A program made the translations under genes and the position numbers. A stretch of 49,621 bases of DNA, counting the filler, from Cladosporium halotolerans (Eukaryota), in NCBI RefSeq assembly GCF_011745625.1. It is 2 parts of 2 records of this genome, joined end to end, with 100 filler letters (N's around TTAATTAATTAA, not from the genome) between each part and the next. Parts side by side here need not be neighbours in the genome. Positions count along the whole stretch, not along the records: positions 24,915 to 49,621 come from NW_027191540.1; 1 more part is not named here. The stretch is one strand, 5' to 3'. The notes under the pieces are model-generated. The model saw nothing but the letters and a program-made list of their open reading frames with translations, ran no database searches and had not been told where the DNA came from. The stretch's first letter is position 1, and the number at the start of each line of letters is the position of its first letter. Positions 44,498 through 48,941 of this stretch are shown here, piece after piece.

Positions 44498-45229
44498 TCA
44501 GGTCTTCGTGAACGCCTTGTTCTGCTCCATGCTCCCACCGATGAAGTTCCTCAGCGCCGCCCAGCGGTCTGCTTGTGCCGAAGAGCCAGCCGTCACGCCA
44601 CTGGTCCCCTTGCTGGAATTCGCGGAGCCCACGCCTCCAGCCTTGAAATCGGCTCCCTTCTTGACACTGCCCACCAGCTGCGCGAGGTTCTTCCCAAACC
44701 GATCCATCTCCCGGCCCTCCATAGCTCTCTTCCGTTTCATAGCGCCAGGCTTATGCTTCAAGCTCTTCATCTCCATCTTGCCCTGCCCAGCAGCCGCCTT
44801 CCTCACCCGCCTGCGCCTCTTTGGCGCCCCATCAACAGCCATGCCCTCCTCCTCGTCCGAAAGCCCCTCCCACTCATCCTCGTCATCCTCCTCTCCCTCC
44901 TCAGCCATCTCATCCAGCTCCGGCAGCGCATCCGCCAAACTCTCCAAGTCCGTCTTGAGCTTCTTGTTCGGCCTGCGCGGCTTGGCCTTGCGCACGCCCG
45001 CGTCGCGCACCTTGTTCATGAGCACGCTGTGCTTCATCGCGCGCTTGTCCTTCTTGCTCGTGCGCCAAGCGGCGTCTTCGTCGTATTCCACGTAGCCGTC
45101 GGGCTTCGGTTTCAGGCTGTTCGCGATGTGGGCGGGGGGCGTGAAGGTGCTGCGCGGGTGGGAGACGGCGTCGCGGGGGGTTTTGGCGGCGCGCGACCGC
45201 ATTGTCGTTCGTTTGCGGATGGGCGCCAT
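44498..45229 (-). CDS. SLX9: Ribosome biogenesis protein Slx9-like, 243 aa
   Basis: SKKDKRAMKH, RRPNKKLKTDLESLADALP, SLKHKPGAMKRK...EMDRFGKNL, RWAALRNFI. Start taken at MAPIRKR (CACCATGG context). Confidence 0.88.
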   Translation of the reverse strand: MAPIRKRTTMRSRAAKTPRDAVSHPRSTFTPPAHIANSLKPKPDGYVEYDEDAAWRTSKKDKRAMKHSVLMNKVRDAGVRKAKPRRPNKKLKTDLESLADALPELDEMAEEGEEDDEDEWEGLSDEEEGMAVDGAPKRRRRVRKAAAGQGKMEMKSLKHKPGAMKRKRAMEGREMDRFGKNLAQLVGSVKKGADFKAGGVGSANSSKGTSGVTAGSSAQADRWAALRNFIGGSMEQNKAFTKT

Positions 45230-47300
45230 GGTGTGAGGCTGTTGTGTTGTGGTGTTGGCTGGAGGTATGGTTTTTTTGGTGCGAGTTGGCCTCGTGAGAG
45301 GCTTTGGGCGGGGAATTTTTGGCGGAGGCTCGCTTTCGGACGCCGAGGGGCAAATTTCACCAAGTCCGCTCGCTGGCTGGCGGGAAGATGGTGAGCAGCA
45401 ACCCAGGGCAGCCTTCACCTGATGCCTGCAACAGATGGATTAAACAGTCAGAATGGTTCAAAGTGTGCCTGCATTGAAAGTGTCTATAATATTCGCTATA
45501 TTGACGCCTTCCCCTTGCCCAAACCCGCTCTCCTCGCTTCTGCTCCAGCGACAGCCCTGATGAAGATGCAGAAGCAGCATCCAGTGAGCGATAAGTTTCT
45601 TTGTTGCCTCTGATCGCTCAGATCTTCCCGGTAGTATCGTAGAAGGAGAATCTTCCATGCAGAACCCCGGCAATGATGACGGTCCAGCCCCAGGGTCTTT
45701 GCATGCAGCCGACCCACCCTTGCAAGATGGTCAGCACGCCACGTGGGTCTGTCAAAGCTTGTCTGAACTTCACATTTTCTCCAGTGTCAACGTTGCCTTC
45801 AGCCTGTGGTATCTTTCCTGCTCCTTGCGATTATTCTTTTCGAACCTCCGATCCAACCTGCTTATCCCGGGGATGGGGCAGCCCCAGCTCGCTGCCTGCC
45901 TTTTGTTCATGCTGTCTGCTTGAGCCTCGGGCGAGATATTGCGGAATCTCTTCAGCAGTCAAGCTGCACCGCTAAATTTTCCGAGTTTGAAGATGGCAAA
46001 TGGCACACAGAGGCATGTCTGACTGTGCCAGCCACTTGAAGCAATGCTGCCATCGCTGCCGCCAGCCTTGCCAGAGTGGTCGCCTGCAAGGAGGGTCTTG
46101 CTCGCTACCGGAGCGACGTGGTCCTTTGTTGTGTCCGAAGCTGTGAAAGCGTGGTCCTCACAAAGCGATCGGCCTGCTGATCTTCTGAGACCCGTGGTGT
46201 CGACTTCTGCTCTTTTTCTTGCAAATGTGCAATGCCCTAAGTTCCCTGGAGGACGCTGGCTCCTCTCGGTGGTCGCAGCGGAGGGCAGGCAGCGAGTTGA
46301 GTCAAACCGGTACGCTTGCCAGTGATGAATGCATCCTCGCCCTTTGTTCTGACCCTGTTTCCTGATATTTCCCAGCTCTTCTGCTACTCCCACGACGCCT
46401 ATTGTCCTCGGTCTTGCGAGTGCTCCGTCCGGCCCCCTGATCCTTGCTGTCGCGCTGGTCTGCGCAAGCGATCAATCCAAGACCGGCTCCGAGCGCTTTG
46501 TTCTTCGAGGATCGGTAAAGACATGCCGTCGTGGAGCCTCCGCGCGAGCTCTTTGATAGCGTCTCTCGCACCAAAGACTTCGAGTGCTTGCTCGGGGGGT
46601 GCGTGTCTCTACCGGGGTCTTGACTGCCGGAGTGATTGGTGTCGGTGACGGATTCTTTCCGGGTGCGATCGGAGTGCAGTGCTCACAGGTATGCTCAATG
46701 TTGCCTGCTCGATACGCTGCGCCTCTGTCCGGATCTCTCTCGCGCATGCAGAATGGCGTCCTCGATCTGATCCGACGTGAAGCAAGGCCAGCCCATCAAG
46801 AAGAGTCTGTGGTCACAGAGCCCTTGTTCTCTTCCACACTCTGTGGTGAGCCCCCGACGGCTTTGGCTTGGTGTCGCTACCGTAGTTGCCTGCTCCACCT
46901 TGCACTACCTGACTCGGCGCTCCTCGGTGGACGCAAGCACGCTAAAAGGGGATGAAGATCTGTCATGGAAGCATAACTGTTTCAAGGTAAGTGTTTCTCT
47001 CATCCCGAGGTTTCTGAATGCTCGTTGTCGCGGCTGGTGGTGTGAAGTTGCTCGCGGAGCCCCTCACGGTCGCAAAGCCCTGCTGCCCACGCGGACCAGG
47101 TGTACGGCAATCACAATGCCATCAAGGCAGCACTAATGCAATGGTCGTACGCGCCTGCAAATGAATGGCATTGTTGCTAATGGCCATCTTGCACTTATCA
47201 GCTGTTCAAAACAATATTCCCCCGGCAATGGGAGGCGTGGCGAATTATCAGCCTTGCAACACGCCAAAATCAATCGCCCCGGCCCCGAATCGAACCCAGC

Positions 47301-47431
47301 AAAAAGAAATGTACTCCTTCTCGGAGCCCCTTTCGGGTTAATCTGTTTTTAAACCACTTGATTGACCACAAAGCGAGCGCGTTATCGTACTCACCTGGCA
47401 AGCCCGGGTGTGAGGTCGCAACCTCACACCC
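47301..47431 (-). ncRNA. Predicted structured small RNA, copy 1 (131 nt), family unknown
   Basis: TATATT starting at 47461 (-30); 5' hairpin GGGTGTGAGGT-TGCG-ACCTCACACCC; 3' AACCC-GAAA-GGG-GCTCC-GAGAA-GGAGT-ACATT; T5; B box GGTTCGATTC at 47287-47296. Confidence 0.65.
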
Positions 47432-47523
47432 GGCAGCCACCCGAACAAACAAATCAATATACCCACGACTGCGACGCCGACGTCACAAAAAGCAGCTGCC
47501 GCTCCCAGGATTTGAACCCCGGC

Positions 47524-47605
47524 AAAAAAGGGAATGTACTCTTTTTCGGAGCCCCTTGCGGGTTGATCGTATGCCACAAGGCTATGAGGTATGGACCTCA
47601 TAGCC
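47524..47605 (-). ncRNA. Predicted structured small RNA, copy 2 (82 nt, short form)
   Basis: TATATAA starting at 47635 (-30); hairpin GGCTATGAGGT-CCAT-ACCTCATAGCC; AACCC-GCAA-GGG-GCTC..GAGT-ACATT; T6; B box GGTTCAAATCC at 47508-47518. Confidence 0.65.
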
Positions 47606-47689
47606 AGCAGCCACCGGCAAAACCAATCTTATATACTCATGACTGCATCGCCGTCGTGCGTTGCCGACGTCAGGATTTGAACCCCGGCC

Positions 47690-47823
47690 AAAAATGAATG
47701 TACTCCTTCTCGGAGCCCCTTTCGGGTTGATATGTATTGTCAAGACCACTTGACAGACCACTTGACCGCACTCTAAGAGTACGTACCTTTGGGGGGCGGG
47801 TGTGAGGTCGCAACCTCACACCC
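47690..47823 (-). ncRNA. Predicted structured small RNA, copy 3 (134 nt)
   Basis: TATATTAA starting at 47853 (-30); same 5' hairpin and 3' module as copy 1; T5; B box GGTTCAAATCC at 47673-47683. Confidence 0.65.
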
Positions 47824-48104
47824 AAGCGACGTCACACGAAATAATTTAATATACTCTCAACTGTAGCTGGGCAACACAGGCACCTTACGACGTTCTTGCT
47901 CCCCCTCGGCGTACTTCACAGTCTGCTACTACCTCTCACTCGATCGATTCGTGAGCCGCGTTTCCAGCACCTCTTTTGCTGTCATCTTCACTCGTATTCC
48001 ATCTCACGCAACGGACTATCTCCCGCAGCGGCTGCCTTCGCCCTTGACCTATATCTGCTCCCTCGCGCCGCACCAGTCCTTTCTTCGTTTTCAGCACCGC
48101 CAGT

Positions 48105-48941
48105 ATGAGCGTCGAGATCGCAGACCTTCGCAGCTACCTTCGATCGCATTGCGAGGGCAACATGTCGCTGCGAGAGAGCATCGCCACTACCATGGACGAC
48201 GAGATCGCCTTCGCCGACGTACGGGTTGCTTCTATCTTCTCGCCCGATGAGCAGGGCATGGATTTCAACGCTGGCGCAGGCGACGCCTTCCACCTCGACG
48301 ACATCGAGGCGGCGATGCGCTTCCTCTGGGAGGAGTTCAACCATGGTACGACCATCGCCGCGAACGCCATGTATGCGTTCTTCATCAATCACACTCTGGA
48401 GCTGGACGCGCAAGAGCTCGTCACTATGGCTCGCGCACGCGACGGCACCCTTCTGTTCGGCGCAAGGCAGAGACCTTTGCCATACCACGAGCGATACGTG
48501 CTCAACCTCAAGATCGTACTGCACATAGGCGGATACGACGAGATCATCAACCCGCGCGAGACGATCAAAGCGCTCATCCACGTTCTCCCTGGCGTCCGAG
48601 AATGCTTCCCGAATCTCCGCGACGTATTGCTGCAGCTCGAGTGGCACCAGGCAGAAGAGGAGATCAGCTTGTTCCGCTCGCTGAAGCACGCGTTTACGGT
48701 CAACGAAAAACCGTTCACATTCTACTACTTCGAGCTGCTCAACGCCTTCCGCCGCCGAATGCCTCGCGACTTGAATAGCCGCTTCGCCAGCTACCACAAA
48801 GGTCGCAATATGCGCGTGCCGAAGGACATGGATGCAGTCAATCCATACAAGAGCGGGGCAGAGATACCGGGCGTTTCGGCCATGAGGATGATGCGACTGG
48901 ATACGGAGTACAAGAAAGCTGCTTGGGGGATGCCTTCGTAG
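48105..48941 (+). CDS. Hypothetical protein, 278 aa, no recognised domain
   Basis: Intronless ATG-to-TAG ORF with strong third-position C/G bias and a pyrimidine-rich leader; divergent from the RNA cluster. Confidence 0.75.
   Translation: MSVEIADLRSYLRSHCEGNMSLRESIATTMDDEIAFADVRVASIFSPDEQGMDFNAGAGDAFHLDDIEAAMRFLWEEFNHGTTIAANAMYAFFINHTLELDAQELVTMARARDGTLLFGARQRPLPYHERYVLNLKIVLHIGGYDEIINPRETIKALIHVLPGVRECFPNLRDVLLQLEWHQAEEEISLFRSLKHAFTVNEKPFTFYYFELLNAFRRRMPRDLNSRFASYHKGRNMRVPKDMDAVNPYKSGAEIPGVSAMRMMRLDTEYKKAAWGMPS

Follow-up and report, generated by a model that had tools for sequence, protein, structure and literature searches.

The stretch of Cladosporium halotolerans DNA analysed here (the window, 49.6 kb) carries on its minus strand, at 47286-47853, an array of three head-to-tail units, with copy 3 upstream, followed by copy 2 and then copy 1. 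Each unit consists of a TATA box, a perfect 26-nt hairpin, a non-conserved linker of 11-12 nt, a scaffold with two small hairpins and a run of five to six T residues. A B-box is located 4-6 nt past the T-run of every unit, with the exact consensus in copies 2 and 3 and one mismatch in copy 1. The scaffold follows the plan AUYAAC, CCC-GNRA-GGG, G, CUC(C)-loop-(G)GAG, UACAUU. Between linker and scaffold, two of the units (copies 1 and 3) contain an insert. Measured from the first G of the hairpin to the end of the T-run, the units are 134 nt (copy 3), 82 nt (copy 2) and 131 nt (copy 1) long, while the insert-free length is 79 nt for copy 1 and for copy 3, versus 82 nt for copy 2. This anatomy, the homology of all modules and their uneven conservation are matters of direct observation, and the pattern at 47286-47853 is real and not due to chance. 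All letters and coordinates given for these features by the first-pass annotation proved correct on re-reading of the sequence, the features lying on the minus strand.

All positions that follow refer to the minus strand. In copy 3, the TATA box TATATTA (47847-47853) has its first T 30 nt before the first G of the 5' hairpin (47798-47823), which is formed by 11 Watson-Crick pairs with the loop UGCG and contains the predicted transcript start. The non-conserved linker of 11 nt, GCCCCCCAAAG, occupies 47787-47797 and is followed by an insert of 55 nt (47732-47786) which starts with GTACGT and ends with CAT, without an AG, directly before ATCAACCC. The interior of this insert contains a 13-nt duplication with TCAAGTGGT, so that this motif is present twice, and a branch-like motif TTGAC. 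The scaffold with its T5 run covers 47690-47731 (T5 at 47690-47694) and is composed of AUCAAC, CCC-GAAA-GGG, CUCC-GAGAA-GGAG and UACAUU; the B-box consensus GGTTCAAATCC is found directly past the T-run, at 47673-47683.

Copy 2 has the TATA box TATATAA at -30 (47629-47635) and a 5' hairpin with the loop CCAU (47580-47605), which carries two fully compensated pair changes compared to copies 1 and 3. Its 12-nt linker, TTGTGGCATACG (47568-47579), is followed by ATCAACCC without any insert. The scaffold, in which the GNRA loop reads GCAA, and the T6 run extend over 47524-47567 (T6 at 47524-47529), with the B-box consensus GGTTCAAATCC again directly past the T-run (47508-47518). Copy 1 contains the TATA box TATATTG at -30 (47455-47461), a 5' hairpin identical to that of copy 3 (47406-47431) and the 11-nt linker GGGCTTGCCAG (47395-47405). 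Its insert of 52 nt (47343-47394) has the ends GTGAGT...AACAG, a weak branch motif and the TCAAGTGGT motif, and is followed by ATTAACCC; the scaffold (AUUAAC...) and T5 run extend over 47301-47342 (T5 at 47301-47305). Past copy 1 a degenerate B-box-like element with one mismatch, GGTTCGATTCG, is located at 47286-47296.

The first T of the TATA box lies exactly 30 nt 5' of the hairpin G in all three units; just 9-16 of the 23 bases of the TATA-hairpin interval are identical between units, and the spacing is nonetheless constant. A T5-6 run is found at the equivalent place in each of the three. A search of the 49.6-kb window with the pattern GGTTCRANTCC gave two matches versus 0.20 expected, a number of at least two being obtained in 3 of 100 shuffles, and both of these exact B-boxes are on the strand of the RNA, 5-6 nt past the T-runs of copies 3 and 2. 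The array thus displays the yeast U6-type Pol III layout, i.e. a TATA box near -30, a T-run and a same-strand B block outside the RNA. For the yeast U6 genes, a review describes the same arrangement, in which the TATA box is at -30, a stem-loop forms the 5' terminus, and a T-run and a B block located outside the RNA are present (PMC5855946). Based on these signals, Pol III would most likely be the polymerase transcribing the three units. The first-pass annotation had also reported A-box-like motifs in the inserts. The motif TCAAGTGGT is indeed present in both, at about +57 to +80, and is the sole A-box-like motif of the units, copy 2 having none; the likeness is weak when taken alone, the pattern TRGCNNAGTGG with up to two mismatches giving 273 matches in the window versus 235 expected, which is not distinctive.

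Past the T-runs of copies 2 and 3 (47490-47523 and 47655-47689, respectively), the B-box is contained within a T-arm-like hairpin closed by GCCG...CGGC, and in copy 2 a second T5 run follows this hairpin (47486-47490 region). The piece resembles a tRNA gene's 3' part equipped with a terminator of its own, for which no matching 5' half was seen by eye. A tRNA or tRNA-derived gene was rejected as a candidate for the units, as ARAGORN reported no genes in the window and the T-arm/B-box-like piece stands alone past the T-run.

Conservation between copies 1 and 3 is distributed unevenly. The hairpin is identical at 26 of 26 positions and the scaffold at 34 of 35, including a 32-nt identical block, against 4 of 11 for the linker and 30 of 52 for the insert. 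This pattern argues for selection acting on an RNA. Uniform neutral decay or a single conversion tract is disfavoured, because two near-perfect blocks flank a diverged stretch. In every copy, all 11 pairs of the hairpin are Watson-Crick. The four stem differences of copy 2 amount to two compensated pairs, one changed from G-C to C-G and the other from G-C to A-U, and none of its four loop bases agrees with those of the other copies. By our own count, four stem changes would form two complementary pairs by chance in about 1 of 1000 cases; a shuffle control of the compensated changes gave 110 of 500, a test which is powerless with only two distinct sequences. The small GNRA loop is kept as GAAA or GCAA, and a C to U difference at 47323 in related strains retains a G-U pair. 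The folding z-scores of the three units were -4.9, -3.3 and -3.3, with none of 200 shuffles folding as well. Taken together, the three units look like real small-RNA genes.

An unlikely alternative is that no gene is present and that the array represents tandemly duplicated non-coding DNA, perhaps a tRNA-derived or other repeat relic, from which nothing stable is transcribed. Its palindromes and boxes would in that case have persisted through recent duplication and gene conversion. Perfect hairpin palindromes can also persist at the DNA level without an RNA, and the 33 hairpin pairs of the array are all Watson-Crick with zero G-U pairs, as a DNA palindrome predicts. Against this explanation, the conserved positions coincide with the modules of a Pol III gene (TATA box at -30, hairpin at the start, GNRA loops, T-run and B-box), the linker and insert between them have diverged to 36-58% identity, and a single conversion tract cannot yield two 100%-identical blocks around a diverged one.

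Searches for the identity of the units gave no candidate family. No Rfam family was found in the whole window at gathering score, and with E-values up to 10 the array and the single units, including the intron-less copy 2, gave noise matches only, among them a wrong-strand match to PsiU1-6, miRNA hairpin models, isrK and Afu_513 (8.2 bits, E 8). Identity with U6, U3, SL RNA or a catalogued snoRNA was therefore ruled out, in that no Rfam match was obtained at E up to 10. Nor did the Rfam searches bear out a suspected resemblance to U6 in parts of the insert and junction of copy 1. A box C/D or H/ACA snoRNA was rejected, since the Rfam matches are at noise level and the hairpins are perfect, without a pocket. 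A metagenome scan with a 19-nt scaffold motif gave seven loci, all in unrelated bacterial-looking sequence, a prokaryote genome scan gave no matches, and no homologues beyond strains of about 2% divergence were found in these two scans. The hairpin and scaffold strings had no match in a literature search. With the filters switched off, a scaffold covariance model detected only the three units in the 49.6-kb window. The lack of homologues outside close strains in the metagenome and prokaryote scans, the lack of an Rfam match and the presence of just three copies in the window all favour the view that the array is not a gene.

By sequencing-run look-up, part of the stretch was found in 20 runs from 16 studies, none of them recorded as RNA; four of the runs (X1, X5, X6 and X16) were compared. 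Their contigs, reaching 18.5 kb in X1, are about 2% diverged and run unspliced across the whole array, including promoters and spacers; they were taken as DNA and do not bear on splicing. Among the differences listed, none falls on either donor, on the copy 1 CAG or on the copy 3 CAT, which carries little weight at a divergence of about 2%. Our own tally of the differences listed gave a similar rate for scaffold and spacers in the close strains, which counts against a small-RNA gene.

The inserts of copies 1 and 3 are homologous to each other, with 30 of 52 aligned columns identical and three gap columns, and match nothing but each other within the 49.6-kb window; for introner-like elements of Dothideomycetes, numerous near-identical copies of an intron would be expected throughout the genome. 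They begin with the donor-like hexamers GTGAGT from 47394 in copy 1 and GTACGT from 47786 in copy 3, both at +38, both preceded by AG and both agreeing with the 5' splice-site pattern GTRNGT. The shared 5' block reads AGGTRNGTAC, which is the degeneracy pattern of the fungal 5' splice site. The longer string AGGTRAGTA occurs once in the window, counting both strands, and this is at copy 1; the expected number is 0.36, and at least one occurrence was obtained in 28 of 100 shuffles. The first-pass annotation had emphasized that a donor motif occupies the same place in both long copies. The positions are right, but they are not two independent observations: because the inserts are homologous and the hairpins of copies 1 and 3 identical, the GT at +38 was inherited once.

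Fungal introns typically have lengths such as the 52 and 55 nt found here, and their branch consensus is CTRAC-like, at a short distance before the 3' splice site. At the junction, where YAG is expected of an intron, copy 1 has CAG, which directly precedes the conserved AUYAAC, and copy 3 has CAT. Copy 3 contains TTGAC 9 nt before the junction, while by eye copy 1 offers just 4/5 matches (TCAAT, TTAAA) and has in the alignment a 3-nt gap opposite the TGA of the TTGAC of copy 3. The earlier reading that copy 3 combines a branch-like TTGAC with a CAT end, and that the branch motif of copy 1 is poor, is thus upheld in both parts. Its further statement that copy 1, once freed of its insert, is colinear with copy 2 was also confirmed, with a very strong donor, a suitably placed CAG and a resulting length of 79 versus 82 nt. 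The more general proposal of intron-containing RNAs fared less evenly: the donor and CAG of copy 1 and the AGGTRNGTAC block speak for it, but copy 3 is without an AG and copy 1 without a good branch site. Copy 3 could not be spliced to the junction predicted for copy 1, because the AG is absent there (CAT). On the strength of these signals it is plausible that the copy 1 insert is an intron; the copy 3 insert fails at its 3' end. One simple reading is that an ancestor had a complete intron and that each descendant has since lost one signal, while equally the insert may never have been spliced at all.

This last explanation, which we consider somewhat unlikely, would assume RNAs of about 131-134 nt in which the insert is an expansion segment with an A-box-like internal promoter element, copy 2 being a shortened and possibly decaying derivative. 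The donor-like hexamer would then be kept for some other reason, such as being the 5' strand of a local hairpin. The missing 3' AG of copy 3 and the lack of a good branch site in copy 1 are in agreement with it. Both inserts open with a local hairpin that includes the hexamer, and in the unspliced RNA the hexamer of copy 1 is predicted to be fully paired, with P(unpaired) of about 0 for +1 to +6, and that of copy 3 partly. The two hairpins differ in register, however, and therefore show no covariation. The structure of the inserts also points both ways: that of copy 3 folds unusually well (z -3.7, 1/200 shuffles), but that of copy 1 is no more structured than shuffles (z -0.4, 65/200). The best-kept block of the insert interior is the A-box-like one, GTGGTC..TCAAGTGGT, which is unusual for an intron, although the S. 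pombe U6 intron does contain a promoter box, and favours an insert retained in the RNA. The promoter of copy 2 (47618-47640) likewise fits a decaying copy, having five differences in 23 nt versus X1, X5 and X6 among the differences listed, compared to about 2% elsewhere, with the TATA box reading TATGTAA (47632) in these three of the four runs. On the other side, the kept block at the insert start has the exact degeneracy of a 5' splice site (GT, R, N, GT) with AG before it, and removal of the inserts restores the length and layout of copy 2 (79, 79 and 82 nt).

The first-pass annotation had put forward, as a second possibility, unspliced RNAs that present a donor site. Such RNAs could be SL-like and donate a 37-nt hairpin-plus-linker to other transcripts, or could undergo a first-step-only cut releasing a 37-nt RNA; the U-run would be an Sm-like site and the T-loop hairpin the 3' stem. 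We regard this as highly improbable. It would make use of the very strong donor at the fixed position +38, the genes are tandem, and a donor used in trans-splicing can do without a 3' splice site, so that copy 3 would be accounted for. By eye, the U-run of copy 3 is Sm-like (A, five U, GG) and is followed by the GCCG...CGGC hairpin, but the U-runs of copies 1 and 2 are without the leading A, and the B-box orientation together with the T-runs agrees with termination by Pol III ahead of the 3' hairpin. Copy 2 is devoid of a donor and yet keeps every other module. The 11 nt adjacent to the donor are unconserved (4/11), whereas leader exons are normally kept, and an 11-bp G+C-rich 5' hairpin would presumably hinder translation of a recipient mRNA. 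The fit is poor for copy 1 in particular, where the donor hexamer is the one predicted to be fully paired. Trans-splicing is not known in fungi, which was also counted against this explanation. Membership of the spliced-leader RNAs was rejected for the same two features of the units, namely the missing donor of copy 2 and the 4/11 identity between copies 1 and 3 in the 11 nt that precede the donor.

According to the first-pass annotation, copy 2 looked like the spliced form of its neighbours. Copy 2 does run colinear with copies 1 and 3 once their inserts are removed, but the idea of a processed copy does not hold. Copies 2 and 1 have homologous promoters, with 32 of 45 upstream bases shared, and the copy 2 block from scaffold to B-box, which reaches past the terminator, shows 90% identity to copy 3 over 62 nt. 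Because promoter and downstream B-box are shared, copy 2 is a paralogue at the DNA level and not a retro-copy of a spliced RNA. The kinship of the units (47286-47870) is mosaic, the promoter joining copies 2 and 1, the hairpin copies 1 and 3, and the downstream block copies 2 and 3. This suggests unequal crossing-over or gene conversion within the array, which also speaks for the reading as duplicated non-coding DNA. MAFFT aligned the copy 2 linker with interior positions of the insert of copy 1 (10 of 15 columns); this alignment was discounted, as it breaks up the hairpin of copy 2.

Of all parts of the unit, the linker is conserved least, with 2-4 of 11 positions identical between copies. 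In runs X1, X6 and X16 the linker of copy 1 has a substitution at 47397 and a 1-nt deletion at 47403, with which a loose end in X5 agrees. Matches and complements of the three linkers within the 49.6-kb window were at chance level. The fast divergence of this segment fits either an unconstrained linker or a diversifying guide. The most far-reaching reading would be a new class of fungal Pol III small RNA requiring the spliceosome, in which the hypervariable 11-12 nt serve as a guide, or in which the 5' part is handed on or released via the donor. The linker would then be a programmable single-stranded segment between a constant 5' hairpin and a constant 3' scaffold. We consider this very unlikely.

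In the neighbourhood of the array, a stretch of 215 nt at 46987-47201 on the plus strand has intron-like ends, with GTAAGT at its start and CTAAT about 20 nt before TTATCAG. It is cleanly missing from X1 and X5, in X6 205 nt of it are gone, and X16 carries the stretch together with an 8-nt insertion, so that it looks like a presence/absence polymorphism between strains. The same stretch contains a scaffold-like piece of 10-13 nt at 47052-47069. A candidate fourth copy at 46987-47262 was rejected, its score being no better than that of shuffles, 13 of 200 of which reached or exceeded it. A 306-aa ORF at 44498-45418 on the minus strand matches the ribosome-biogenesis family SLX9 (PF15341, E 1e-27), while for an ORF on the other side of the array (48105-48941, plus strand) no Pfam family match was found.

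The explanation that we tentatively prefer, as possible though short of probable, is an orphan family of Pol III small RNAs with a U6-style promoter layout and an mRNA-type intron or intron relic. Transcription of the units, the polymerase, splicing and any function are inferences from the sequence. The locus would represent three paralogous genes, arranged in tandem, which encode an uncatalogued small RNA in a Cladosporium-like fungus. Transcription would start at the first G of the stable 5' hairpin, directed by the TATA box at -30, and terminate in the T5-6 run, with the downstream B-box serving TFIIIC. The core RNA of about 80 nt would consist of the 5' hairpin, a freely varying single-stranded linker, AUYAAC, two small hairpins, UACAUU and a U-tail. 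An mRNA-type intron of some 50 nt would have separated linker and AUYAAC in the gene from which copies 1 and 3 descend. Copy 1 retains GT...AG and may still be spliced, copy 3, which has CAT in place of the AG, would be made as a 134-nt RNA or be defective, and copy 2 would be an intron-less paralogue that arose via DNA duplication.

Several known systems share parts of this design. The yeast genes RNA170 and ZOD1 are orphan Pol III genes which are small and non-coding, carry TFIIIC and TATA signals and have no known function; unlike these, the units of the array are arranged in tandem, with a terminal hairpin and an insert resembling an intron. Spliced-leader RNAs, too, are small RNAs from tandem genes and combine a 5' part and a GU donor with a U-rich site and a 3' hairpin, but here one of the three copies has no donor, the donor-adjacent sequence is unconserved, the signals are Pol III-like and no SL match was found in Rfam. 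With the fungal U6 genes (S. cerevisiae SNR6 and S. pombe), the units have in common the TATA box at -30, the 5' stem-loop, the T-run and the B block outside the RNA (PMC5855946). They differ in having neither the sequence nor the fold of U6, in a predicted RNA of about 80 nt, and in a B-box 4-6 nt past the terminator, while that of U6 is far downstream or intronic. In S. pombe U6 the B block lies within an intron excised by the spliceosome, and this gene provides the precedent for a Pol III small RNA with a spliceosomal intron holding a promoter element (PMC5855946). The insert here contains an A-box-like motif, in contrast to the B box of the U6 intron.

The fungal U3 snoRNA genes likewise encode a small structured RNA with an mRNA-type intron near the 5' end, comparable to the intron-like insert of the units, and occur as paralogues with and without intron in one genome, similar introns in paralogues being due to DNA duplication (PMC5832005). 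The units in the present array are much shorter, have no Rfam match to U3 and show no C/D boxes by eye. According to the same source, U3 and U6 are the sole small structured RNAs known to be often interrupted by introns, and some fungal genomes contain both intron-bearing and intron-less paralogues of such RNAs (PMC5832005). If the RNA is not made, the locus would be merely a curious repeat. If the preferred reading of an intron-bearing Pol III small-RNA family is true, the picture known from U3 and U6 would be widened by a third, unrelated family of small RNAs with such an intron, and the array would offer a compact natural test case in which adjacent paralogues have an intact intron, a broken 3' splice site and no intron.
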